Assembly: GCA_964016885.1 (NCBI GenBank) | Contig: OZ024748.1 | Coordinates: 17,422,001-17,486,000, forward strand | Origin: Eledone cirrhosa | Lineage: Eukaryota | Direction of reading: 5' to 3' | Length of the DNA: 64,000 nt | Part shown: piece by piece, positions 327-63,127 of the stretch | Layout of the letters: each line of letters begins with the position of its first letter | Position numbering within the stretch: the stretch's first letter is position 1 | Translations under genes and position numbers: made by a program | Notes under the pieces: model-generated | Seen by the model: the letters and a program-made list of their open reading frames with translations, nothing else | Told to the model about the DNA's origin: nothing | The model's database searches: none

Positions 327-474
327 TATATATATATATATATGCAAAAGTTTTATTTAAAATTGTAGGGTTACAACGAGTAAATATTTTATAACTGATA
401 TAAAAGCACTCAACAGGTTTTGGAGTAGGTTTACGATATTAAACAAATGGAAACTATATTTATAAAACCATATT

Positions 475-540
475 TATTTCATTATATATATTTCAGGGAT
501 ACCATATTAAAAATATGGTATGCCTTCCTCAGACAAAATA
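475..540 (-). ncRNA. Hammerhead motif family A, inverted copy
   Basis: Reverse complement of 1128-1193, in the left arm of the 432-1235 inverted repeat. Confidence 0.7.
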
Positions 541-1127
541 CAATATATAAACCGTTTTATAAATAAATTTAACATACCTAGAACAGTGCAACTTCCATTT
601 AAAAAGTTGATTTGGTAGTGAAAATGTTGAGGACATTTATATATCGGCTGTTTTTTAACTGTATCTCTCCCACCTCGTATGATAGATATTACTCGTTCTA
701 CCTCTTTTCTCCCACCACATATATCTCTCTCTACCTCTCTTTATTTATCATATTTCTTTCCGTATCCTTAACACTATAACTAAATAAATAAATAAATAAA
801 TAATTACAGTACCCCCTTCCCTCCTTAATATCTCATTTGTACCGTGATCATCTGTCTCCAAGCTGCCTATCATTTTTCACTCCCTCAATATATTTCTCTC
901 TCCCATATCTCTTTCTCTCTATCTCGCTCTGTTGCTTTCTTTGCATACATCTCTTCATCTTCTTCTCTAACTGTCCTTAGCGCTATACACTTTCTTTCTT
1001 CTTCTCTTCTTTTTTTCTTCTTTTCTCTTCGTCCTTCTTTTTTAACTGTCCTCAACATTTTCACTACCAAATCAACTTTTTAAATGGAAGTTGCACCAAA
1101 TTTATTTATAAAACGGTTTATATATTG

Positions 1128-1193
1128 TATTTTGTCTGAGGAAGGCATACCATATTTTTAATATGGTATCCCTGAAATATATATAATGAAATA
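1128..1193 (+). ncRNA. Minimal type I hammerhead ribozyme motif, family A
   Basis: Helix I tattttgt/atgaaata (8 bp, 2 G-U); core CTGAGGA; helix II agg-c-ataccatatt/aatatggtat-c-cct; GAA; palindromic helix III ATATATAT; predicted cleavage after A1185. Confidence 0.7.
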
Positions 1194-1233
1194 AATATGG
1201 TTTTATAAATATAGTTTCCATTTGTTTAATATC

Positions 1234-1289
<56 letters not shown>

Positions 1290-1392
1290 AATACTGTCGG
1301 CCCTTGGCTACTATGTTTTCTATACCTTTCATATATATATATATATATTCATTGAATTATTCAACAGAACATGGAAGTTCATCTTTTGCATG

Positions 1393-1464
<72 letters not shown>

Positions 1465-1474
<10 letters not shown>

Positions 1475-1811
1475 TAAAAAAATAATGAATAAAACAATGA
1501 AACAGTTCCTTATATTAAACAAAAAAAGTTCATTATTTAACGATCGTTTCTAGGACATATATGTGTTAGAATTGGCATGCATATTCAAAAGATCTATGTA
1601 CAAAATTATACAAACTATCAAAGAGAATATGTGTGTGTTGGTATGTATATTCTCTTTGATAGTTTGTATAATTTTGTACATAGATCTTTTGAATATGCAT
1701 GCCAATTCTAACACATATATGTCCTAGAAACGATCGTTAAATAATGAACTTTTTTTGTTTAATATAAGGAACTGTTTCATTGTTTTATTCATTATTTTTT
1801 TTATATTTTAT
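1465..1811. repeat. Near-perfect palindrome, ~165-bp arms and ~16-nt loop
   Basis: Arms 1465-1630 and 1647-1811 are complementary. Paralogue at 61964-62391. Confidence 0.95.
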
Positions 1812-1930
1812 CTTGACTCTGTATTCCGTTTATCTTTCACCGAAAGTGATCTCTTCTTTCCATGATATCCGGATTACATTGAGTTCTTCATACGGATTGG
1901 ACACTACCGTAAACTTTTGGTAGATTTATC

Positions 1931-1968
<38 letters not shown>

Positions 1969-3025: not shown

Positions 3026-3386
3026 TCAGCTCTCCTCGTGCTTTCTTTTGAATGAGACAGCTCTAGTCCTGTAGAAGCCATATCTATATCTATCTATCTA
3101 TTTATATATATACAATATATTTAGAAACACACAGATACATACGGACACACACACATACATGAATGCATCCACACCCAACCGTGAGTTAATGGTGCCAACC
3201 TTACCGATGTTGCTCTGTGATAAGTCGGCAGACCTCGCAAGGGCTCTATATCTTTATGATGTATTGTTTTTGTTTATGCCACGAAACTACGTAGTCGAGG
3301 AATCTAGGAACAGTTTAGGTATGATACATTTTATTACTAATTATATCTAAATGTTTCTTCTCTCTTCATAATGTATTTATATATAT

Positions 3387-4041: not shown

Positions 4042-4042
<1 letters not shown>

Positions 4043-4253
4043 GTGTGGCGGAGTGGTTAGAGAATTGGATTCGCAATCGTAAGGTTGTGAGTTCGATTCC
4101 TGGACCAGGCGATGCGTTATGTCCTTGAGCAAGACACTTTATTTCACGTTGCTCCTTCTACCTGGAGTTGCGACCGATAGATAGTATTAGCAATTGGAAA
4201 GACCAACGGAAACATTGTTCCTTCGGTCCGATTTGACGAAAGTCGATCGTTCC
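4042..4253 (+). mobile_element. tRNA-derived SINE, family 1
   Basis: A box tggcggagtggttag, B box gagttcgattcc, central gtccttgagcaagacactt. Multiple copies in the window. Confidence 0.85.
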
Positions 4254-4730
4254 ATTCATATATATACACACACATATATTAGATATTGTTGATTGAGACT
4301 AGTAAGACGATTATTCAACTTAATATTCCATACTTTACATAGAGTACAGTAGAGTAAAGATGTAAACCTTATGGAGGTGAGGTGGGGGGGGGGTATACAG
4401 TTTTGTTGTTGTTGTTGTTGTTGTATCAATTGCTTTACCAAACTTTGATGACGTTGTGAATTATGTTTTACCTATGACCTTTTCAAACTATGCAAAATTC
4501 CTAATAAAATTAAAATCACTAATTAATGAATATATTTTCTTATGGCAAATGTTAATTAGTAATAATGACTTTCTTCAATTAGAATGTTATGAATTGCCAT
4601 TAGAAGTAAACAGAGAAAGATTTAATTAATGAAAACAAATGTATATTCACTTTGATAATTGTAGGTTTTAATAAATGTCGTCTGCAACATAAGAGCAATA
4701 GATAGAATTATATTTTCCTAATAAGCACTG

Positions 4731-5172
4731 TCAGGCCAGTCATAGTCCTGCTACTGGTACCATGTAACCCAATATAATCTGTTTCATAGTAGAGTTTGAG
4801 TGGTCGGTGATTAAAATAGCTCCCCCACAAGGCCCTGGTCTGGTTTGGTCAGTCTTAGGCCTGCTACTCGAACTATGTAACCCATTACAACCTATTTCAT
4901 GGATGAGGTTGAATTTTTGGTGATTCAAACAGCTTCCCTACAAGGCCCTGGTCTGGTCAGGCCAGTAAATAGGCCTGCTACTGGTACAATGTCACCCAGT
5001 TCAACCTTTTTCATGGTTGAGGTTGAGTGGTCAGTGATTAGACCAGCTCCTCCACAAGGCCCTGGTCTGGTCAGGTCAGCCTTGTGCTAATGGTACCATG
5101 TCACCCAGTACAATCTGTTTCATGGTTGAGTGGACAGTGATTAGACCAGCTCCCCCCATCAGGCCCTGGTCA
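4731..5172. repeat. Degenerate tandem repeat, ~113-bp unit x 4
   Basis: ggccctggtc recurs at 4831, 4944, 5058 and 5162. Confidence 0.85.
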
Positions 5173-6152: not shown

Positions 6153-6202
6153 ATTTATTGAACTATATTTATATATAATATATATCATTTGATATTTAAT
6201 AT

Positions 6203-6292
6203 AATTGTTTCTACGTTTGGCACAATGCCAGCAAATACCCAGTGCATTACTGGTACTTTATTTTATCGACCCCGTAAGGATGAAAGGCAAAG
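6203..6292 (-). mobile_element. SINE family 2, 3' fragment
   Basis: cccagtgcattactggtactttattttatcgacccc matches the reverse complement of 39140-39232. Confidence 0.75.
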
Positions 6293-6724
6293 TTATTATA
6301 TCATCTCTACCACCTCCTTAGGCTCCAGTGCCCCCTGGTTCTTCTCAATTCTCCCAGGGGTCGGCAGTGCCCATTTTGAGAACCACTGAGCTAAATGAAC
6401 TCAAGCAATTTAGAATACAAATTCCAGGAAAACAACTTGAAGTAGCTTAACTTTGATATTCGTAAGTCATTTTCCAATAGGCACAGAACAGTGTGATATT
6501 GAAGTAGTGAACATTGGTTATATAGCTCCTACAGAATCGGAACTTAAAATATATTGAAAAAGTCTAAGCAAATGGCTTTTCAAATACTCAAGTGACTTCC
6601 ATTTTGTGGTAGACGCTGGCAATGTATTAAAAACGTCCACAATTACCAATGCCGTGTTTTAGTTTTCTGTTGAAGTACAAATCAATTGTCTTGGAAAATT
6701 ATTTGCCTCTTCTTGAATAGTGTC

Positions 6725-31388: not shown

Positions 31389-31789
31389 GTAACCGTTCTG
31401 CTTATATTCTCGCCCACTAGATGTTAACGCTTCTAATATTTAACTCTGTAGGCACAAGTATTGAGCACATATGCACAAGCTATTGGCAACTAAATATATA
31501 TATCGCTTATCTCTTCTTTTCTCTCGATACTTAAATATTATATATATATATTTATTGTTATATTTGGGGAGGGCCATATTATAATATTGCCAGAAATAAT
31601 AATAGAACACGCTCTCTGTTTGGTTTTTTCGAATATTAATAATAACATTCGATTCGTTTGCAATTTTGCAAACAAGCCTCAATTTTATAGCCATGTCAGG
31701 AGAACGAACACTTCATTCTTGCTCTTATGTTGGCATGTGAACAGAACTTTATTTATATATACACATATATATATGTATATACATATGTA

Positions 31790-32623: not shown

Positions 32624-32627
<4 letters not shown>

Positions 32628-32941
32628 GATATTAAACAAATGGAAACTATATTTATAAAACCATATTTATTTCATTATGCATATTTCGGGGATACCATAT
32701 TAAAAATATGGCATGCCTTCGTCAGATAAAATACAATATATAAACAGTTTTATAAATAATTTTGACGTACCATAAATATGAGCGACCATTATGGTCGCTC
32801 ATATTTATGGTACGTCAAAATTATTTATAAAACTGTTTATATATTGTATTTTATCTGACGAAGGCATGCCATATTTTTAATATGTATAATGAAATAAATA
32901 TGGTTTTATAAATATAGTTTCCATTTGTTTAATATCGTATA
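32624..32941. repeat. Palindrome of the family A element, centre at 32790
   Basis: ...gagcgaccat-t-atggtcgctc... The right arm has a deletion that removes the GAAA of the hammerhead. Confidence 0.9.
32668..32733 (-). ncRNA. Hammerhead motif family A variant
   Basis: Minus strand reads tattttat CTGACGA aggcatgccatatt ttt aatatggtatcccc GAA atatgcat a atgaaata. A G-U pair in helix I of the 1128 copy is A-U here. Confidence 0.65.
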
Positions 32942-33024
32942 TCTACTCCAAAAACTTGTCGAGTGCTTTATATCAGTTATAAAATATTTACTTGTTGTAA
33001 CCCAACAATTTTAGATAAAACTTT

Positions 33025-33063
<39 letters not shown>

Positions 33064-37014: not shown

Positions 37015-37204
37015 CTCATCTTGAATTTTTACAGACTCATACTAACACATACATGGAGCTGGTGTGCTTATATCTTATATCAATGTACACACACACACAC
37101 ACATTTATATATGTGTGTGTGTGTGTGTGTGTACATTGATATAAGATATAAGCACACCAGCTCCATGTATGTGTTAGTATGAGTCTGTAAAAATTCAAGA
37201 TGAG
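37015..37204. repeat. Palindrome centred on (CA)n-AT-(TG)n
   Basis: ctcatcttgaatttttacag... is complementary to ...ctgtaaaaattcaagatgag. Confidence 0.95.
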
Positions 37205-37638
37205 CGGGGATTTGAACTCAGACCATAAAGGGCCGTAACTCTTTGCTGCAAAGCATGGCGTCCAACCCATTTTCACAAGAGAAGACATCTCCATCCTAAA
37301 GTGAGTGGAAGATCTCCTCATCGGACGGGGAGAGTTGACAGGTCTGTATACATATATGTACATATATATACACACACACATATGTATGTATCTCTCTTTC
37401 TACACACACACACACACATAAATATGTGTGTAGAAAGAGAGAGAGATACATACATATGTATGTGTGTATATATATGTACATATATGTATACAGACCTGTC
37501 AACTCTCCCCGTCCGATGAGGAGATCTTCCACTCACTTTAGGATGGGTGAGAGATGTCTTCTCTTGTGAAAATGGGTTGGACGCCATGCTTTGCAGCAAA
37601 GAGTTACGGCCCTTTATGGTCTGAGTTCAAATCCCCGC
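37204..37638. repeat. Second, abutting palindrome (~210-bp arms) centred on a (CA)/(TG) microsatellite; includes a SINE 5' part
   Basis: gcggggatttgaactcagacc... is complementary to ...ggtctgagttcaaatccccgc. Confidence 0.95.
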
Positions 37639-37730
37639 CGAGGTTAACTTTGCCTTTGGGGTCGATAAAATAAAGTACCAGTAATACACTGGGATAATTG
37701 CTGACCTTGTGCCAAAAGTAGAAACAATTA
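37573..37730 (+). mobile_element. SINE family 2
   Basis: B box gagttcaaatccc; similar to 39046-39232. Confidence 0.75.
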
Positions 37731-37884
37731 TATAAAATCTCCACATTTTACCTCATTTTTCCCCGGTTTGGGGCACTTTTTTTCGTGGTACTTCCCATTT
37801 GTGTTTTTAGAGGTTGGTAGGTCTGAATACAGCAGATAAAAAGTGAGAGAGAAGAAATGAGAAAGAGATATAGAGTAAGAATCT

Positions 37885-39045: not shown

Positions 39046-39232
39046 TGGTGGATTGGCAGTATTGGTAGAGGGGTGGACGCCATACTTTGACGTATAGAGT
39101 TACGGTCCTTGCCATTCTGAGTTCAAATCCCGCCAAGGTTAACTTTGCCTTTCATCCCTACGGGGTTGATAAAATAAAGTACCAGTAATGCACTGGGTAA
39201 TTGCTGGCCTTGTGCCTAACGTAGAAACAATT
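39046..39232 (+). mobile_element. tRNA-derived SINE family 2; other copies at 39510-39660(-), 50116-50220(-), 57329-57502(+) and 59009-59104(+)
   Basis: A-box-like tggcagtattggtag, B box gagttcaaatccc, shared body taactttgcctttcatcc...gataaaataaagtaccag. Confidence 0.8.
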
Positions 39233-40420
39233 ATATGACATTGAAAAGTTCATAGGTAGACTATGAAGGAGTGATGCCAGCGCTGTGAAATCTTGCATGC
39301 ATTAATTTCAACTCTTCAGGGACTATGTTGAAAAATAAACCTCATTTAGTCATTCCATGAGAGTATCTTGGTCAGCTTATAAACTTGTATGTCTTTGTAT
39401 AAATATATATATACAGGAGGGTAGGCTGAAACACTTATAGGTTGACTCTGAAGGAGTGATGCTAGGGTTGTGAAATCTTGCATGCATTAATTTCACCTTT
39501 TTTTTATTAATTGTATCTACTTTAGGCACAAGGCCAGCAATTTTGGAGGAAGGGAAAATCAATTAAATCAACCCCAGTACATTACTGGTCCTTTATTTAT
39601 TGACCCTGTAGGGATGAAAGACACAGCTATGCTCTATCAATACTGCCAATCTACCGCCCTTATTAATAACTGCGTTATTTTCTTTCTAAGAACTATGTTG
39701 TAAAATAAACCTCATTTGGTCATTCCATGAGAGTATCTTAGTCATCCTATGAACCTTTCAGTCAGCCCTATCCTTTCAGGGTTGATAAATAAAATATAAG
39801 ATAGGAATCACCACCATCTTAGTTAATCGAACAGATCCGATCCAAGTGGCCACCCACGTTAAATAAGGATTGATAGATCTGAATTTAATTTCTGTTTGCT
39901 AAAATATTTTAGAAAATTTATTTATTTAGGTACAATAATAAATAAGTTTTATTGTTACCATTGTTCTAGTTGTTGTTGCTTTTGTTGTTGTTATTGTTGC
40001 TTTTGTTGTTGTTAATTGTTTCTTTTGTTGTTGTTATTTTTGCTTTTGTTATTGTTGTTGTTGTGTTTGTAATGTGTTTTCCCTATATTTATTTATATAT
40101 GAAAAATAAATCAAAAATTTCTGAAGACAATTAATATTCATGAAGAAAATTGGTAAAAATTTAGAAGAAAAATGTAAATCAATGTTGTGTGAAATTGAAA
40201 GCAAATATAGAAAAGTGAAATAAATCATTAAAGTAATTAATAATAATATTAATAATCACTTCTAATTTAACATAATGAATATGATACATGTATAGGGATG
40301 TCTGAGTGTGTATGTATGTGTAGGGGTGAGCAGTTATATATATATTATATATATATATATGCATGCATGCATTGATTGTACACACACATGTATTTGTATG
40401 TGTATATACATATATATACA

Positions 40421-41194: not shown

Positions 41195-41558
<364 letters not shown>

Positions 41559-41569
41559 TTTATATATAT

Positions 41570-41695
41570 AGGAACGAGTAGGACCCCGACAGCTGAGCTC
41601 AAGCCGTTTCGACGGCTAATTCTGGACTACTATCCTAAGTATTGAGTACTTTGGTGCGTTATGGTCCACCTGGTTCCTTACCACATTTCCTTCAT

Positions 41696-41737
<42 letters not shown>

Positions 41738-41875
41738 AACAAGTATGACCCCGACGGCAGAGCTCAAGCCGTTTCGACGGCTAATTCTGGACTATTACCC
41801 ACTCTACTACCCTAAGTATTGAGTATTTTGGTGCGTTATGGTCCATCTGGTTCCTTACCACATTTCCTTTGTTAT
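41570..41875. mobile_element. Two tandem copies of a ~135-bp (TA)n-embedded repeat; also at 54735-54912, 55077-55185 and 62884-63090
   Basis: gaccccgacggctgagctcaagccgtttcgacggctaattctg...ttgagtactttggtgcgttatggtcc is shared. Confidence 0.8.
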
Positions 41876-44029: not shown

Positions 44030-44412
44030 GGCCTGCTTCCAGACCAGATCCATTCCTACCAGATCTTCAATGGGCCTGCTTCCAGACCAGATCCATTCCT
44101 ACCAGATCTTCAATGGGCCTGCTTCCAGACCAGATCCATTCCTACCAGATCTTCAATGGGCCTGCTTCCAGACCAGATCCATTCCTACCAGATCTTCAAT
44201 GGGCCTGCTTTCAGACCAGATCCATTCCTACCAGATCTTCAATGGGCCTGCTTCCAGACCAGACCCATTTCTACCAGGTCTTCAATGGGCCTGATCCCAG
44301 ACCAGACCCATTTCTACCAGATCTTCAATGGGCCTGCTCCCAGACCAGATCCATGCCTTCCAGAACTTCAATGGGCCTGCATCCAGACCAGACCCATTTC
44401 TACCAGGTCTTT
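44030..44412. repeat. 43-bp minisatellite, ~9 units
   Basis: Unit ggcctgcttccagaccagatccattcctaccagatcttcaatg. Confidence 0.95.
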
Positions 44413-45249: not shown

Positions 45250-45520
45250 TCATCATCATCATCACCGTTTTACGTCCGTTCTTCCACGCTAGCATGGGTT
45301 AGACGGGTTGTCCTGTTGTGGGCAGTGTCTGGTCGGCTGACCATGCCTTGCTCATACAGGAACTGATCTGGCTTGATTTCTACAGCTGGATGCCCTTCCT
45401 AACACCAGCCTCATTTACAGTGAGTGCTGGGTGCTTTTTCGTGGCACCTACACGTCCACTTTACAGTGTGGGCTGGGTGCTTTTTTGTTGTGGCACCTCC
45501 ACGGCCACCTTGCGGTGGGG
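45250..45520 (-). mobile_element. SINE-like family 3 with ~48-bp internal modules and (GAT)n tail; copies at 46850-47065(+), 49692-49882(+), 55208-55350(-), 55935-56100(+), 58355-58543(+) and 58620-58906(+)
   Basis: Shared ctgtaaatgaggttggtgttaggaagggcatccagctgtagaaa...aacccatgctagc...gatgatgat. Confidence 0.8.
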
Positions 45521-45554
45521 GGTGTGGGGGCATATTGTCTATATGCTTCAGCTT

Positions 45555-46270
45555 GTACCCATGGGAGGTCGGGTACTCTGTATTACTGCATGACGCCAGA
45601 AGTCACGGTCGTGTGTCATTGCCTTTGAGAGGTGTAATTGGGTAAGGTCGGCTTTTATCACCTCATCCCAGGTTATCTTGGGTCTCCCCACTCCGTGGTT
45701 TCCATCAACTTCTAGTGCTCTGCACCTTTTTATGCAGCTGTCATCCTTCATACGCATCACATGTCCATACCAGCGCAACCGCCTCTCCTGCACACAGCAT
45801 TTGATTCCTCTTATGCTCAGTCTCTCTCTCAATTCATTTATGTTTTGTCGTTCGCGTATATTACTATTACACATCCATCGGAGCATGCAGGCTTCGTTTC
45901 TCTCTAATCTACGTAGGTCTTCCACCTTCAGCGCCCAGGTCTCACTACCATGCAATATCGCTGTTCGGATACACGCATCATACAGTCTGCCTTTCATTCT
46001 GAGGGAGAAGCCTTTTGCAGCTAGCAGTGGTAGTAGTTCCCTAAACTTCTTCCATCCCGTTCTTACCCTAGTTATTGTACTTTCTGAACACCCACTTCCG
46101 CTGCTAATTCGGTCACCTAGGTAGCAGAAGCTGTCTACTGTTTCTACAGAGCCCTCCTAGAGATTGGTGGTACTTGTTTCCTGTGGCTGTTTGCTGCTTG
46201 CTGTCTCAGCACAGCTGCTGCATGTGAAGCCTACATTCTTCCTGAGATCCAGCTACATCTCTTGTGTACC
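45555..46270 (-). mobile_element. RTE-clade LINE, 3' fragment (RT C-terminal region)
   Basis: Translates as ETVDSFCYLGDRIS...WKKFRELLPLL...KGRLYDACIRTAILHGSETW...RRLRWYGHVMRM...GRPKITW, typical of RTE ORF2. Confidence 0.92.
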
Positions 46271-46698: not shown

Positions 46699-47389
46699 CG
46701 TGGCTTAGTGGTTAGAGCATTGGCCTTGAAATCGAAAGGTTGTGAGTTCAATTCTCAGACTGGGTGATGTGTTGTTTCCTTGAGCAAGACCCTTTATTTC
46801 ACATTGCTCCAGTTTACTCAGCTGTAGAAATGAGAAGATAGGTACTGGGGTCCCTATCATTCCACTGCAAAGTGGCCATGGAGGTGCCACAGCAAAAAAG
46901 CCCCCAGCCCACACTGTAAAGTGGACGTGTAGGCACCATGGAAAAAAAAGCACCCAGCACTCACTGTAAATGAGGTTGGTGTTAGGAAGGACATCCAGCT
47001 GTAGAAATCAAGCCAGAATCAGTTCCCGTCCCCCCGTTGCAAGCAAGAAAAAGCGGACGTAAAATTAAATGAATGAAATGATATATATATATATAGATAG
47101 ATAGATAGATAGATATATAAAATTACAAGAAACGAAGAGAGCTGTGTGGTTACTGTAAACAAAGTTTAAGATGGTAATATCGACGAAACAAGAGAAGAAA
47201 TCCTTCATCAGCTGTAAACCACAGATCGTAGATATTTCGACGCTTATATATATATATATATGTGAGAAAAACCTCATCTCAATTCTACTTTTGAAAAGCA
47301 GAAGAACTGTGAAACCGGTAAAGGAACCAAATAAATATATATTTAAAAAAAAAAAAGACTCCAGTTGCATTTTCGATTTCATCTTTTTT

Positions 47390-48860: not shown

Positions 48861-50033
48861 AAAAAGTTAAAAGAAAAAAAAGACCCCAAATAAAAGGAAT
48901 GAGAAAAGACAATAAGTGACATAAAATATAAAATAAATCGATTTATGATTTCTATAAAGAATTTAATTGTTATAAAGATCAGGCTATTGAGTACAGTGTT
49001 GGGTCAATAAGTAGGAGTTTCTAACAATGGAATTGGTCTCGGCTGGTTCTCACCGTCTCTGTTCCAGCTGATCAATCAATAGAACAGCCTACTCATTAAA
49101 TTAACGTGCAAGTGTCTGAGCATTCCACAGAAACCCTCACAGAAATACTGCAGCCTTTAACCCTGGAGCAAGCTACTTTCCGTTGGCGCATTGATACCCT
49201 TTTCGTACGTGATTTGGCTAAGTTAAGCCAATCATTATCCGCATATGGATATGTATTTCAACTTCCGCCCAAACTGAGAATTTCCTGCTTCTTTTAATAA
49301 ACTAATTCTCTTGCAGCTTGACCTCGCTAAGGTAAACAACCATTTTGCTTTTGTCCCGCAAGCACAAACAATATATAATGACAAAACATTACCGCAGCCT
49401 GGCTAACACTTCAGCCAGTGACCGTGTCTTCTGAAACCTTAATTATGTTTGTTTCATTTATTTTGGCATGCCAACCAAGCTTAATACAGCTCTTCTCACC
49501 TTAAACATGGTTAATAAATTCTGTTACAACGAACTACAAATTGTCGTCGACATTATTTTATCTTACTTCTAAACTGGTTACTATTACTTGTTGCTATACT
49601 GATGACATAATACATCATCATCTTATGTTATAAATTGTTTCACTGGTAAATTCTGTTGATACACAATACACAAATACAAATAGGCGCTACGAAAAAGCAC
49701 CCAGCACTCACTGTAAATGAGGTTGGTGTTAGGAAGGGCATCCAGCTGTAGAAATCAAGCCAAATCAGTTCCTGTATGAGCAAGGCATGGTCAGCCGACC
49801 AGACACTGCCCACAACAGGACAACCCGTCTAACCCATGCTAGCGTGGAAGAACGGACATAAAACGGTGATGATGATGATGAAATATTATCATTCTCATTA
49901 ATATCCTTTAAAAATGCTATCTTCAATCCTTTAGCATTTAAACCATCTCTGTTCCAGTTGATCAATCATTAAATTAACGTGCAAATGTCTGAGCATTCTA
50001 CAGAAGCCCTCACAGAAATACTGCAGCCTTTAA

Positions 50034-50358
50034 CCCTTTAGCATTTAAACCGGCCATATCCGGCCAGAGTTCTCTTACCTCTTTCTGTTCAAACCGGCCA
50101 TATGTGGACACTTATAATTGTTTCTAATTTTGGCACAAGGCCAGCAATTACTCAGTGCATTACTGGTACTTTATTTTATCGAACCCAATAAGGATGAAAG
50201 GCAAAGTTAACCTCAGCGGATAATGATGTTAAGGTATTGTTCACAAAATAAATAATATCAAAATCTCATCGATTCAATATTAAGTGATAATTGTGTGAAA
50301 TAAACTGTTTACCATGAAAATACAATAGTAAATATAAAGTAATGTAAATGCTAAAGGG
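50034..50358. mobile_element. piggyBac-like MITE with a nested SINE
   Basis: TTAA|ccctttagcattta...taaatgctaaaggg|TTAA. The empty-site paralogue cctttaaaacctcca is at ~50506-50520. Confidence 0.85.
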
Positions 50359-53707: not shown

Positions 53708-54363
53708 ATAGTGAAGGCAAGTGGTTTAGTGGTTAGAGTGTTGAATTCGCAATCCTGAGGTGGCAATTTCAATTCTCGAACCAGGTGATATCTTGTGTCC
53801 TTCTGCAAGGATGTTGTTCTTACTGCCAGGAGTTGTAGCAATGGAGAGACCAATAGAAACATCTATGGAAGAAATATTCCTGAAATTATTCAGAGTTTAG
53901 TATATTTACCATGGTCATTTCTAAAAGGATCTAAAATCTTGTAAATATAAGACTCTAAATAGTGAGAGTATTGGTTTGGAAAATTATTATTTTATTTACG
54001 ATCTTATCTCACACTCACACATATCATCATCGTCATCATCATCGTTTAACATCTATCTTCCATGCTAGCATGGGTTAGTCAGGATTTGTCCCACGACCAT
54101 GTCTCACTCGTATAGGACTGTAATATATACATATATATATATATATATTTCGTTTCTGAATTTGTTTAGCAAGATTCTTTATCTGAAATCGTGTGTTGAA
54201 ACCGATATTGTTATACTTTGGGAGGGTCATGTTGCCAATAAGAAACACACGCACCAGTTGCTTTCACTTCAATTTAATTTATTAAATATTTATAAATTTA
54301 CAAATTTATAAATTTCTGGTTGGTTGGTTGGTTCCACAACCAGATAGTTGTTTATATATATAT

Positions 54364-54408
54364 AGTCATAGTTCTTTCGTCACACACTCTGTGACCTCTT
54401 CAGTGACT
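54364..54408 (-). ncRNA. Minimal hammerhead motif family E, inverted copy
   Basis: Reverse complement of 54525-54569, in the other palindrome arm. Confidence 0.7.
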
Positions 54409-54524
54409 GGGGATTTCGTTCTTCGTTTCTGTGTCTTTCCTTTCTTCTATCCTACGCCATTTTGAAAATGGCGTAGGATAGAAGAAAGGAAAGGCACAGA
54501 AACGAAGAGAAGAAAGGAATCCCC

Positions 54525-54569
54525 AGTCACTGAAGAGGTCACAGAGTGTGTGACGAAAGAACTATGACT
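54525..54569 (+). ncRNA. Minimal hammerhead motif family E
   Basis: Helix I agtca/tgact; core CTGAAGA; extra G; helix II gtcaca-gagtg-tgtgac; GAA; AGAACT; CUA site after 54564. Confidence 0.7.
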
Positions 54570-54941
54570 ATATATATATAAACAACTATCTGGTTGTGGA
54601 ACCAACCAACCAACCAGAAATTTATAAATTTGTAAATTTATAAATATTTAATAAATTAAATTGAAGTGAAAGCAACTGGTGCGTGTGTTTCTTATTGGCA
54701 ACATGACCCTCCCAAAGTATAACAATATATATATAGGAACAAGTAGGACCCCGACGGCTGAGCTCGACGTTTTGACGGCTAATTCTGGACTCAAACAGCT
54801 TGAGCTCAGCCGTCGGGGTCCTACTTATTCCTATTACCCACTCTACTACCCTAAGTATTGAGTACTTTGGTGCATTATGGTCCATGTGGTTCCTTACCAC
54901 ATTTCCTTCATTATATATATATATATTTATATATATATATA

Positions 54942-57035: not shown

Positions 57036-59699
57036 TTTTATTAAGGATAAATATATACCCATCTTTAATGGCGCGTGGCCGAGTGGTTAGAGAATTGGAT
57101 TCGCAATCGTGATGTTGTGAGTTTGATTCCTGGACTGGGCGATGTGTTATGTCCTTGAGCAAGACACTTTATTTCACATTGTTCCTTCTACCTGGAGTTG
57201 CGACCAATAGATACCATTAGCAAACTACTTTTGGCACAAGGCCAGCAATTATCAACAAAATAATTCAAGCATTTATAGGTTTGCTCGATCTTTTAGATAT
57301 AACAGCTGATTATACCTCAGATCTCATGTTGGCAGTATCGGTAGAGGGTTGGACGCCATGCTTTCCATCATAGTTATGTCCCTTTATGGTCTGAGTTCAA
57401 ATCCCGCTGAGGTTAACTTTACCTTTCCACTTTACAGGGTCAATAAAATAAAGTAATATACCTGGGTAATTGCTGGCCTTGTGCCAAAAGTAGAAACAAT
57501 TATTTTATTAAAAGGAAAAGAAAAGCCTCCTTTATTTACAAGTGTTTGTGGGTTATGTATCCATGACTACCTAACCAAGGTGTGTTGTGGAAGACCAGCA
57601 GTCACCCATGCATGCAAATCTTTCCTCTCCAAAACAGCAATGTTGTCCAAGGGAAAGACGAAAGCTGGCACAGCTTGACTCCTGTGTCATCTCAACTCAT
57701 TTTTTCTCAATGCAGATTAAAGTATCTTGCTCAAGGGTTCCTGAAGCAAAGCCTCTAAACTCTAAGCCATATGCTCCCACACTGGTATCTGTAGTGATTG
57801 CTAATTCAACAAATAACTATTTTCTTCCTTTATACCAATTTCTTCCACTGCGTTTGCAATAATTTGGCTTAAAACATTTCGTGCAGGAGTGTCATTATGA
57901 ATGTCGACCAAATGCAGTCTCCTGCTATTGCTTCCACCTCAAGTATTCCATGCAAGAATGCGATCATTAGCATGCAACAATTCCTTACAAAAAGGATACT
58001 GGTTTCTTTTTCATTTCCATAATAATTTTCCTTCCTCCGCTGTCTCCATTTTTTTTCTCATTGGCGCCTTTGTCTGTCTCTTCTCTGCTGTGTATTTATA
58101 GTCAATGGTTCTTATTTCTCCACAATCTATCTATAGAAAAACAAAAGATGTCTGGATTTTGCACAATAATTAAAGCATTTAACCACTATTGGCAAAAAGA
58201 GATCTGCCTAAGCTATTTATTGAAATACGGATCATACTGTAATTGCACCTTTTTTTTTCTTGACAGATTGAAAAGAGACTGTTTGTAAGAAATGTGCAGA
58301 AAGTATGAATGTTTTTCAAGATAATAGGAAATAACCTATATATGCTTGATATAAAAACACCCAGTACTCATTGTAAATGCAGTTGGCCTTAGGAAGGCAT
58401 CCAGCTGTAGATACCAAGCCCCAAATCAGAATTAGTCCTGTATGAGCAAGATATGGTCACCTGACCTAGCATTGCTCATAACAGGACAACCTGTCTAACC
58501 CATGCTAGCATAGAAAATAGACATAAAATGGAGGTGATGATGATATATGTATATATACACACAAATATATATATATACCATTATCATGATATATATATAT
58601 ATGTGTGTGTGTGTAATCTTGGCACCACAAAGCATCCAGCCCACACTGTAAAGTAGTCATGTTGATATCAGGACAAAAAGCACCCAGTCCACACAGTAAA
58701 TGGTTGTGTAAAAGACACGGCAAAAAGCATCCAGCATACACTGTAAATGTGGTTGGGGCTAGGAAGGGCACTCAGCTGTAGAAAACCACCGCAGAAACAG
58801 CCTTATATGAGCGAGACACGATCACTCGACCCGACTTGCTTCTAGATGGGACAAACCCGTCTAACCCATTCTAGCATGGAAGATAGACATTAAACGATGA
58901 TGATGATATTACTGTACTCTTCGCTGGACTTGGCAGTCTTCTGTCCTTTTGTTTCTCATCTTATAACATGGTATATATTTTGCTATTGTTTTATTGTGTC
59001 AATATTCGAAGTTGACTTTGCCTTTCATCCTTACGGGGTCGATAAAATAAAGTACCAGTAATGAACTGGGTAATTGCTGGCCTTGTGCCTAAAGTAGAAA
59101 CAAATATTCAAAGTAAATCATAACACGATATTCAAAGTAAATCATAACAACTAAAGTAAAGTATTCTATATTTTATGCATTTTTAACTCTTTTAATGCCA
59201 AACAACCAGGAACTCCACTTGGTTCCATGATACCAAAACCTTCTGTCATAATTTTATGTAAGAACCTTTGTTATGTTCCAAACATAAGCTTTATAACAAA
59301 AAATTTAGTTATATTACTAAATTCCTCCAAATTCTTGACTATCTATATATATATATATAATCATCATCATCATACTTTAATGTCCATTTTCCATGCTAGC
59401 ATAGGTTATATATATATAGGTTATAAAATACAAGGACCTCTTTTAACCATCTTTTGATCTTATATTATATATATAAATATATATAATATTAAGGATACTA
59501 TTTATGGTTATGTATATACTAAAACTTTTTATAGTTATATATATTTTCAACCCTAAACAGTGAAGGTCAGTAATTAATTACTACCTTATTACCAGTAAGA
59601 TAAATAGCTCAATGTAATAACATCAGTTGTTCTACAGAACAGTTATATGGAATTCCATATAAATATATAAATATATATATATATATATATACTATATAT

Positions 59700-60148
59700 A
59701 TACTAAATGAAGAGAATGCATGGGAAGAAGAGACCCTACCCCAAGTAGACCCTATAGAGGGGCGGGCAGCAGCGTAGTAAGTAAGACAATCTAAGGTATG
59801 AAGACGGGGAAGGCAACCGGTCCATCCAGTATAGTAGCTGATATGCTGAAGGCATCTGGGTCGGTAGGTCACACTATAACTACACGTATTGTTAACCAGA
59901 TAATACTAGAAGGTATCATACCAAAGGATTGGTGCAGTAGCATCATTGTCAACTGTTACAAAGGTTAAGGTGATGCACTAGATAGAGGAAACTATAGAGG
60001 TATAAAGCTGATGGACCAGGTAATGAAAGTAACAGAAAGACTTATAGCACAGTTGATTAGGGACCAGGTGAAACTAGATGAGATGCAATTTGGGTTTGTA
60101 CCAGGAAGAGGCACCACTGATGCTCTCTTCCTTGTGAGGCAGTTACAT
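59700..60148 (+). mobile_element. RTE-clade LINE internal fragment (RT N-terminal part, with stops)
   Basis: MKTGKATGPSSIVADMLKASG...IPKDWCSSIIVNCYKG*GDALDRGNYRGIKLMDQVMKV...EMQFGFVPGRGTTDALFLVRQL. Confidence 0.92.
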
Positions 60149-60269
60149 GGAACTCTTTTAACCATCTTTTGATCTTATATTATTTATACTCCAGTCCTAT
60201 AAACTGTTGAGTGCTACTTATCCGATATTTGCATTGCTTTATTGTGCTACAATAAAACTGACCTCCTAC

Positions 60270-60682: not shown

Positions 60683-61006
60683 ATAGCGGCAATGAATTAG
60701 TTTTGCGAGGTTTTTTTATATGAAATCGTGTGTTGAAACAAATATTGTTATACTTGGGGAGGGTCATATTTGTGTAATATTGCCAGAATTAATAACAGAA
60801 CACACTACACAAATATGACCCTCTCCAAGTATAACAATATAATATAATATATATATATATATATATAATATAATATATATATATATATATAGAGAGGCTT
60901 AGCTCTGTTTCTCGACCGTTATATCGCGTGACTATCTCCCCCTCCGCCTTTTGGGATTCTTTCTCACGTCGTGTAGACGCGTTCTTGAGACTAGTAAAAT
61001 GAGGTA

Positions 61007-61096
61007 TCCTCTTGATAAGTCGGCAGACCTCGCAAGGACTCTATATCTTTATGATGTATTGTTTTTGTTTATGCCACGAAACTACGTAGTCGAGGA
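61007..61096 (+). ncRNA. Hammerhead motif family B, with U3-A8 core variant
   Basis: Helix I tcctc/gagga; core TTGATAA; helix II gt-c-ggca...tgcc-ac; GAA; palindromic helix III ACTACGTAGT; GUC site, cleavage after C61091. A 5'-truncated copy lies at 3218-3301. Confidence 0.7.
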
Positions 61097-61418
61097 ATCT
61101 AGGAGCAGTTTAGGTATGATACATTTTATTACTAATTATATCTAAATGTTTCTTCTCTCTTCATAATGTATTTTTAACTCTGATACTGGTTCAGTCTAGT
61201 TCAACCGGATTGGTCTGTCCCAGTTATTCATTGAGCAACATCGGTGAAGTTGGCACCCTTAACTCACAGTTGGGTGCGGATGCATTCATGTATATATGTG
61301 TGTCCGCATGTATCTGTGTGTTTCTAATTATATTGTTAATATAATATATATATATATTATATAATGAGTAAAGTGGACTTTGAATGACAACTATGATGAT
61401 ACACACACATATACATAG

Positions 61419-61457
<39 letters not shown>

Positions 61458-61689
61458 TAAAAAAATAATGAATAAAACAATGAAACAGTTCCTTATATTA
61501 AACAAATCTTCTTCTCTAACTGTCTTTAGCGCTATACACTTTCTTTCTTCTTCTCTTCTTTTTTTCTTCTTTTCTCTTCGTCCTTCTTTTTTAACTGTCC
61601 TCAACATTTCACTACCAAATCAACTTTTTAAATGGAAGTTGCACTGTTCTAGGTATGTCAAATTTATTTATAAAACGGTTTATATATTG

Positions 61690-61755
61690 TATTTTGTCTG
61701 AGGAAGGCATACCATATTTTTAATATGGTATCCCTGAAATATATATAATGAAATA
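61690..61755 (+). ncRNA. Hammerhead motif family A
   Basis: Same sequence as 1128-1193, within the duplicated block. Confidence 0.7.
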
Positions 61756-61924
61756 AATATGGTTTTATAAATATAGTTTCCATTTGTTTAATATCGTATA
61801 TATATATATATATATATATGGAATACTGTCGGCCCTTCGCTACTATGTTTTCTATACCTTTCATATATATATATATATATTCATTGAATTATTCAACAGA
61901 ACATGGAAGTTCATCTTTTGCATG

Positions 61925-61963
<39 letters not shown>

Positions 61964-61972
<9 letters not shown>

Positions 61973-62391
61973 TAAAAAAATAATGAATAAAACAATGAAA
62001 CAGTTCCTTATATTAAACAAAAAAAGTTCATTATTTAACGATCGTTTCTAGGATATATATGTGTTAGAATTGGCATGCATATTCAACAGATCTATGTACA
62101 AAATTATACAAAATTATACAAACTATCAAAATTAAATATACATACCCAACACATATATATGCCGTCTTCAGAAATAATTATTTCTGAAGACGGCATATAT
62201 ATGTGTTTGGTATGTATATTTAATTTTGATAGTTTGTATAATTTTGTATAATTTTGTACATAGATCTGTTGAATATGCATGCCAATTCTAACACATATAT
62301 ATCCTAGAAACGATCGTTAAATAATGAACTTTTTTTGTTTAATATAAGGAACTGTTTCATTGTTTTATTCATTATTTTTTTAATATTTTAT
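61964..62391. repeat. Palindrome with ~214-bp arms and no loop (centre 62177/62178)
   Basis: ...gccgtcttcagaaataa|ttatttctgaagacggc... One mismatch seen between the arms. Confidence 0.95.
62177..62325 (+). ncRNA. Hammerhead motif family C, with long rod-like helix II (mirror copy on the minus strand at 62030-62178)
   Basis: Helix I attattt/aaataat; core CTGAAGA; helix II atatatatgtgtt/aacacatatatat extended by tggtatgtatatt/aatatgcatgcca (G-U pairs), with an imperfect base; GAA; palindromic helix III ACGATCGT; GUU site after 62318. Confidence 0.55.
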
Positions 62392-62510
62392 CTTGACTCT
62401 GTATTCCGTTTATCTTTCACCGAAAGTGATCTCTTCTTTCTATGATATCCGGATTACATTGAGTTCTTCATACGGATTGGACACTACCGTAAACTCTTGG
62501 TAGATTTATC

Positions 62511-62548
<38 letters not shown>

Positions 62549-62883: not shown

Positions 62884-62888
<5 letters not shown>

Positions 62889-63011
62889 AGTAAGTAAGAC
62901 CCCGACGGCTGAGCTCAAGCCGTTTCGACGGCTAATTCTGTACTCAATTGAGTACAGAATTAGCCGTCGAAACGGCTTGAGCTCAGCCGTCGGGGTCTTA
63001 CTTACTCCTAT
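62884..63011. repeat. 128-bp perfect palindrome (centre caa|ttg)
   Basis: ataggagtaagtaagacc...ggtcttacttactcctat. Confidence 0.95.
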
Positions 63012-63087
63012 TACCCACTCTACTACCCTAAGTATTGAGTACTTTGGTGCGTTATGGTCCACCTGGTTCCTTACCACTTTTCCCTCG

Positions 63088-63127
<40 letters not shown>

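Follow-up and report, generated by a model that had tools for sequence, protein, structure and literature searches.

Palindromes with mirrored arms in Eledone cirrhosa as likely insertion products of a Penelope-like retroelement

EN+ Penelope-like elements encode a single ORF that combines a reverse transcriptase (RT) of telomerase-like type with a GIY-YIG endonuclease, and the protein of the Hydra clade carries RWK and DKT motifs and a CxCX5C linker and lacks CCHH. L1 is known for twin priming, in which the second target strand primes an inverted 5′ piece that is joined by microhomology; its inner site is variable and the pieces seldom overlap. For large palindromes, arm-to-arm conversion is established. 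In the sections of PMC8557442 used here, Penelope-like elements are described as having an inverted, 5′-truncated copy beside the 5′ end and a tail on one side, and the Hydra clade as targeting (TA)n and carrying hammerheads; the same sections name the origin of these inverted structures as unresolved and report that they trouble assemblies. Minimal hammerheads occur paired on opposite strands, 100–700 bp apart, with a palindromic stem III and an extra base before stem II, and are highly variable within one genome (excerpts of PMC4209133). In the Anolis element PAc both target strands are cut and extended and two RT starts bracket the tail, and the element is able to nick within its own repeat (excerpts of PMC11167929). 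Adineta Pen2a and Pen3a have captured unrelated DNA between their repeats, and self-priming and template jumps have been proposed for them (excerpts of PMC3846280).

Here we analyse a 64-kb stretch of the E. cirrhosa contig OZ024748.1 (the window), which is animal-like and rich in (TA)n, with 247 tracts of at least 8 bp. Two palindromes lie near its ends, A1 (1469–1808) and A2 (61967–62388); in both, a (TA)n tract is followed by an inverted arm, a direct arm, a tail of 126 nt and again (TA)n. The left flank of the A1 target is a (TA)36 tract (1397–1468, unstranded), followed by an inverted arm of 162 bp (1469–1630, minus strand) that begins at a fixed family boundary and ends in a 4-base ATAT overlap with the direct arm (1627–1630). 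The A1 direct arm, including a 16-bp spacer (1631–1808, plus strand), is 5′-truncated within stem II of a hammerhead motif and holds only the 3′ half (GAAA at 1727, predicted cut after 1738); the tail (1809–1934, plus strand), present on one side only, contains a bulged stem at 1816–1884 and runs into (TA)n at 1935–1966. In A2 the whole hammerhead motif is present on the minus strand of the inverted arm (61967–62177, 211 bp, minus strand), with CUGA at 62171 and GAAA at 62048; the direct arm (62178–62388, plus strand) meets this arm without a spacer, the centre falling on the 5′ edge of hammerhead stem I; and the tail (62389–62514, plus strand; bulged stem 62396–62464) is followed by (TA)n at 62515–62545, the right end of the insertion. 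A third inverted arm, a 55-bp stub with the same outer boundary (61452–61506, minus strand), stands directly after (TA)n and forms the left end of the 61.5–62.5 kb insertion, so that three inverted arms (A1, A2 and the stub) begin at the same family A boundary. Because both flanks of A1 and A2 are (TA)n, a target-site duplication is unreadable at either. A reading as MITEs was rejected, as the (TA)n lies 126 nt past the right arm and does not abut it.

This structure of inverted copy plus tail is one known for Penelope-like elements and comes closest to that of the Hydra clade. We regard it as very probable that the A palindromes are the 3′ ends of a Penelope-like retroelement, and a Hydra-like family of this kind likely produced each of them in a separate insertion. 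A 5′-truncated inverted copy next to the 5′ end is present in A1, A2 and the stub and also in families B, C and D. As far as PMC8557442 is used here, family A behaves as a 3′ end of the Hydra clade would: the (TA)n target and a type I hammerhead near the 3′ end are common to both, Hydra-clade hammerheads often have an extra base flanking stem II on each side, Penelope-13_HM in the supplement has a 5′-truncated inverted copy and hammerheads on both strands as A does, and Hydra-2_Amil and Hydra-2_Ajap, judged by eye, show near their 3′ ends a stem with a 2-nt bulge like the one that opens 7 of 15 tails in the window. However, insertion into (TA)n also occurs in Naiad and Neptune and is therefore not diagnostic of the Hydra clade, the window copies have no ORF, the 116-nt stem II of A is about twice the longest in the table of that paper, and family A differs by eye from Hydra-1_Obim. 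Penelope/Poseidon elements, in the excerpts of PMC11167929 and PMC3846280, share with A the inverted repeat at the 5′ end and the tail on one end, and also have two RT starts, extension of both strands and capture of unrelated DNA between repeats; their tails are 30–40 nt long and those here are 57–126 nt, an excess that counts against our account. Non-LTR retrozymes resemble A in being non-coding, in their type I hammerhead and in their kinship to Penelope-like repeats, but consist of at least two head-to-tail tandem units, each with a hammerhead (part of bioRxiv 10.64898/2026.07.22.740005); A is head-to-head, and no tandem array of A was found in the window.

Pfam searches of 171 frames of at least 55 aa, excluding low-complexity and satellite frames, gave no match to GIY-YIG (0/171) and no Penelope-like protein. 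The lack of a GIY-YIG frame is expected because the copies are reduced to the 3′ non-coding end; that no coding sequence links family A to a Penelope-like protein nonetheless weighs against the best account. The one RVT_1 match (59969–60169, plus strand) is weak, LINE-like and unlinked to family A. A further LINE-like fragment at 45551–46156 (minus strand) holds a 202-aa frame with 349 relatives, of which those named come from marine invertebrates at 39–52% identity. No tRNA was found in the window, and a 27-base motif of A had no match among bacterial and archaeal genomes. Motifs from the window were absent from the parts of two supplements that were searched, PMC8557442 (0/5) and PMC13282606 (0/4), where line breaks could hide matches. 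Literature searches on Penelope with octopus, palindrome and microsatellite found no paper, and one on Penelope with twin priming nothing relevant.

The initial annotation had placed both palindromes inside one duplicated block, listed four differences between them and held that every difference is present on both arms of the respective copy. The palindrome coordinates and the four differences were correct, all four are found on both arms, and the block common to the two loci (957–1934 = 61506–62514) was confirmed; the wider claim fails, since in the stretch that all four arms cover 4 of 5 differences are mirrored. The four comprise a C/T substitution (1556 = 1721 in A1, 62054 = 62301 in A2), an A/C substitution (1589 = 1688, 62087 = 62268), a 10-bp tandem copy on each arm of A2 (62097 and 62233) and a compound change (1623–1625 = 1652–1654 in A1, 62131–62134 = 62221–62224 in A2). 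The mirroring is not chance, because only 0.004 mirrored substitutions are expected if the arms mutate independently. Each palindrome also has one unmirrored mismatch, at 1475/1802 in A1 (1/162 arm bases) and at 62147/62208 in A2 (1/211 arm bases), the latter 30 bp from the spacer-free centre. The centre of A2 contains 42 bases absent from A1 and therefore A2 is not a plain copy of the present A1. The centre joints are not alike in the two copies, and the A1 spacer, in fact the innermost part of the right arm, has three further differences from A2, at 1631, 1633 and 1638. Outside the arms and (TA)n the shared block has 6 events in 513 bases; the A1 and A2 tails differ at 2/126 positions (1861 and 1916 in A1, 62441 and 62496 in A2) and the outer arms at 0/87, in line with 4 events in 387 bp of the block. 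For comparison, the tails of elements B1 and B3 differ at 9/90.

Such a pattern could be produced by local arm-to-arm conversion, or by template switching in replication, after duplication of the block, with A1 also having lost its centre. Besides being established for large palindromes, conversion draws some support from the modest number of mirrored events, the four alone not greatly exceeding the 1.9 expected at the block rate (Poisson 0.12, or 0.04 if the compound change is counted twice), and A1 is derivable from an A2-like form by deletion between ATAT repeats. In palindromes maintained by conversion, the arms are expected to remain identical as orthologous loci diverge and to hold alleles private to the locus. 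On sex chromosomes palindrome arms group by locus, as here, but those arms are gene-bearing and of kilobase scale, and here they are decaying mobile fragments of 0.2 kb. We consider conversion distinctly unlikely: the unpaired spacer of 16 bp, which lies in a TA/TG-like tract, contains three further differences (p 0.001), A1, A2, B1, B3 and D all retain unmirrored mismatches (up to 8/57), and both the RNA fold and the independent insertions described below speak against it.

The arms of A carry a motif shaped like a hammerhead ribozyme, for which activity is only predicted. The type I hammerhead motif of the A2 direct arm (62177–62325, plus strand) has a stem I of 7 bp and CUGAAGA at 62184; its stem II is a hairpin of 116 nt (62191–62306, z −6.1), after which come GAAA at 62307 and a stem III that is short and palindromic. 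Cleavage is predicted to follow position 62318. Each A2 arm has a complete motif, that of the inverted arm being the mirror of that of the direct arm. A window-wide descriptor search returned 8 complete motifs, all in the inverted-arm elements A, B and D, and none in 200 shuffles, with a looser descriptor that was written and tuned after the motifs had been seen; an earlier strict descriptor (contiguous stem II of 6 and fully palindromic stem III) returned none in the window and none in 100 shuffles. In Rfam, neither the A2 nor the D motif on its own matched a hammerhead at E up to 10 (0 matches). Of 362 listed Rfam matches, the best 150 all belonged to hairpin-type families, scored below gathering level and included no hammerhead. 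The energy of the hammerhead fold exceeds the minimum by 4 kcal/mol, which, like the negative Rfam and strict-descriptor results, speaks against our account. Aligning the hammerheads of the different families with MAFFT gave nothing informative.

All 7–8 core events are confined to the 108 bp that precede the predicted cut on its 5′ side, compared with 6 events in the other 583 bp (Fisher 0.0004–0.0014, for a split picked after seeing the data); the four mirrored events alone give 0.035, or 0.26 without the split. The stem II folding energies of the two variants are about equal (−36.7 and −37.7 kcal/mol), and among 2000 random mutants carrying an equal number of changes only 14 keep the stem II fold. 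Thus the core differences, which sit in stem II and leave its fold intact, point to family variants and not to local conversion. In our reading, which the modelled folds suggest, the A1 and A2 cores represent two variants of the family, and selection on the RNA has shaped them.

Two other families serve as controls. Element B1 (344–1234, minus strand) has the same build as A, with a tail at 344–433, a direct arm at 434–639 and an inverted arm at 1043–1234; between its arms lies a 403-bp pyrimidine-rich stretch (640–1042) that is probably upstream B sequence carried by the inverted copy only. B3 (32627–33027, plus strand) is an independent insertion whose flanks have nothing in common with those of B1, and yet its inverted arm begins at the same base. 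Against B1 434–578, B3 shows 10 substitutions; all 7 that both B3 arms cover are mirrored, one of them being private to the compared B1 arm, and the other 3 are positions that a 16-bp deletion has removed from only one of the arms. In family C, an insertion at 62884–63091 (plus strand) has perfect 61-bp arms (0/61 differences) and an 80-nt tail, and differs at 6–7 positions from three other inverted C pieces. The shared outer boundary and the pairing of arms by locus thus need neither duplication nor conversion. Indeed, pairing by locus is expected under every model except an artefact, and a tree of left and right arms does not discriminate between them.

Moreover, 4 of 5 family C copies have an inverted piece of 61–64 nt starting from one boundary, and their direct pieces begin at reference position 1, 23, 61 or 73, the last two giving no palindrome. 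In the two insertions at 41568–41875 (plus strand) the inverted and direct pieces overlap barely or not at all. Since a direct piece can begin at or past the end of the inverted piece (1–64), a single strand folding back on itself is ruled out as the source, and two primings can produce the arrangement. The self-priming on an antisense template proposed for Adineta (PMC3846280, in the part used here) likewise explains palindromic joints but not these non-overlapping inversions. The 55-bp A stub and the pair 3095–3234/3213–3377 are of the same kind. Compared with L1 twin priming, the inner site is here fixed for each family, and overlap of the pieces gives palindromes.

A survey of fold-back structures outside the satellite of the window gave 16 alignments, for 11 of which a TA tract is no more than 6 bp from the end (p 6e-8). 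One-sided builds, with 57–126 nt to the next tract on the opposite side, were found for 9/16 (126 nt in A), and 60747–60835 is a near miss; masking of TA before BLAST pushes alignment ends towards TA tracts, not towards one-sidedness. Arm divergence over 14 pairs in the window spans 0 to 14%, and the arms are therefore not kept identical; unmirrored mismatches number 3/192 in B1, 2/140 in B3 and 4/257 in D and reach 8/57. The 2-nt-bulge stem opens 7 of the 15 tails, 7–16 nt after the arm, against at most 0.6% of shuffled tails. As its pattern was built from A, C and a published consensus, the independent matches are F and B3; the pattern misses 8/15 tails, B1, E, J and K being near misses by eye and D having no such stem. 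A degenerate tail pattern over the window matched once against 4.7 expected, and the structural pattern was used instead. Bulged-stem motifs also occur outside the listed palindromes at 2773, 30158, 55125, 60188 and 38947, where they are probably tail-only insertions of related families.

Further repeats were seen in the window. Family D (54149–54728, 60683–60835 and 31553–31613) has 257-bp arms with one compact hammerhead per strand (54530, 54403) and a 57–70 nt tail, directly followed by a family C insertion. Family E (3095–3377 and 60892–61356) has a 173-nt tail at 61 kb; at 3 kb the arrangement of family A is turned round, with the far 3′ portion in inverted orientation and attached to an upstream portion whose end is an internal site. 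A 48-bp satellite covers 21 kb (8451–29392; 436 copies, 96% matches); its first three units are open in two plus frames and one minus frame, and it could be a repetitive coding exon or a plain satellite. Shorter tandem repeats lie at 44030–44411 (43-bp unit, 8.9 copies, 93%) and 4730–5130 (113-bp unit, 3.6 copies, 78%). Three dispersed families, which we take to be SINE-like or LINE-end repeats, were located at 4042–4266, 41341–41570, 46700–46810 and 57070–57223; at 6191–6295, 37645–37741, 39140–39236, 50102–50219 and 59007–59107; and at 45265–45518, 49681–49866 and 58353–58909, with several copies adjoining (TA)n or (CAT)n tracts.

Fold-back reads or polishing during assembly might also have created or homogenised the arms. 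Palindromes next to (TA)n are hard to sequence, and the trouble that such structures cause in assemblies was mentioned above (PMC8557442, in the sections used). Such an artefact is nevertheless highly improbable here, given boundaries that are fixed for a family across loci, tails on one side only, differences between the arms of each copy and the non-overlapping inversions seen in some copies of a family. Two abutting palindromes, 37015–37204 (0/89 arm differences) and 37204–37638 (3/205), are centred on (CA)n/(TA)n and look like fold-backs at the DNA level. Neither has the (TA)n-plus-tail build; the second continues into a dispersed repeat and contains the bulged-stem pattern at 37238/37604. 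Their presence counts against our account to the extent that DNA-level fold-back also occurs in the window.

The account that we favour is one of insertion. The endonuclease of the element would cut both strands of a (TA)n tract; one end would prime at the 3′ tail of the RNA, and priming from the other would use an internal site that is fixed in position immediately 5′ of a bulged stem; and the two 5′-truncated cDNAs would be joined by overlaps of 2–4 bases, overlapping cDNAs yielding a palindrome and non-overlapping ones a plain inversion. As both arms would come from the same RNA variant, variant differences would be on both arms from the outset, and this reverse transcription from one RNA at insertion is the likely reason that arms pair by locus. 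After insertion the arms would merely decay. The initial annotation had suggested two ways of keeping arms alike. Its idea that one arm is rebuilt from the other at each mobilisation comes close, in that these are mobile-element insertions, with both arms most likely made from one RNA at insertion. Continuing re-symmetrisation by conversion, its other suggestion, is not needed and is disfavoured by the persisting unmirrored mismatches, the range of arm divergence and the mirrored insertions that have no flank in common.

The block shared by the two loci requires an additional step. The donor (957–1396, plus strand) consists of part of the B1 inverted arm (957–1234, hammerhead at 1136), (TA)26 and a 109-bp segment, G (1288–1396). 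Its counterpart at 61506–61966 (plus strand) is a copy of 957–1468 comprising a B fragment (hammerhead at 61698), (TA)n, G and (TA)n, to which the A stub is joined through a 1-base overlap at the copy of position 957. The junction of B1 arm and G belongs to the B1 insertion, both ends of which are at locus 1, and we therefore infer that the block moved from the locus-1 lineage to 61.5 kb. Moreover, family A ends bound 61452–62514, with the stub on the left, the tail on the right and (TA)n outside, which argues for one A-mediated insertion with a 0.45-kb passenger. In this step, an insertion from variant-2 RNA would have proceeded until the left-primed cDNA jumped, after 55 nt, to the locus-1 template at 957, copied it as far as the outer A arm, and returned to the variant-2 RNA through the 87 identical outer bases. 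Two template jumps are required, the first with a 1-base overlap, which weighs against this step. We put the probability of the whole insertion account, template-jump excursion included, at about 60%.

The near-identity of tails and outer arms fits at least as well with a different sequence of events, in which the block was copied whole, the palindrome then broke at its centre and the core was replaced on both arms from another family member; both resected 3′ ends, which have the polarity of cDNA, would have primed on RNA or DNA and then been rejoined. Tail and outer arm do diverge like the rest of the block and only the inner 108 bp more so, the centre joints differ between A1 and A2, the stem II fold is kept as in a family variant, and the Anolis element can nick its own repeat (PMC11167929, as excerpted). 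However, family B, too, shows no difference (0) over the 49 bp that lie 3′ of the cut, so that the invariance of the outer part may be a family constraint; moreover, there is no third copy for polarising the changes and no direct trace of a break. We therefore regard such a replacement as rather unlikely. Similarly doubtful is a bolder proposal, that the window directly records two-strand, two-site, Hydra-like priming, from the tail end on one target strand and from a fixed site next to a conserved bulged stem on the other, and that A elements can rewrite their own palindrome core on both arms from another family RNA, a retroelement-templated re-symmetrisation. Among the titles listed in our searches, none concerned RNA-templated palindrome repair.

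Taken together, on the insertion account the mirrored arms would follow from the insertion mode of Penelope-like elements, and a reading in terms of palindrome maintenance is mostly explained away. Caution is warranted in annotation, as these palindromes score as microRNA-like hairpins. The window holds a graded series, from perfect palindrome through partial overlap and no overlap to a stub joined to foreign DNA, and this series, together with the fixed second start, favours two primings over self-priming and is countable genome-wide. Such elements would also copy 0.45 kb of neighbouring DNA to a site 60 kb away.
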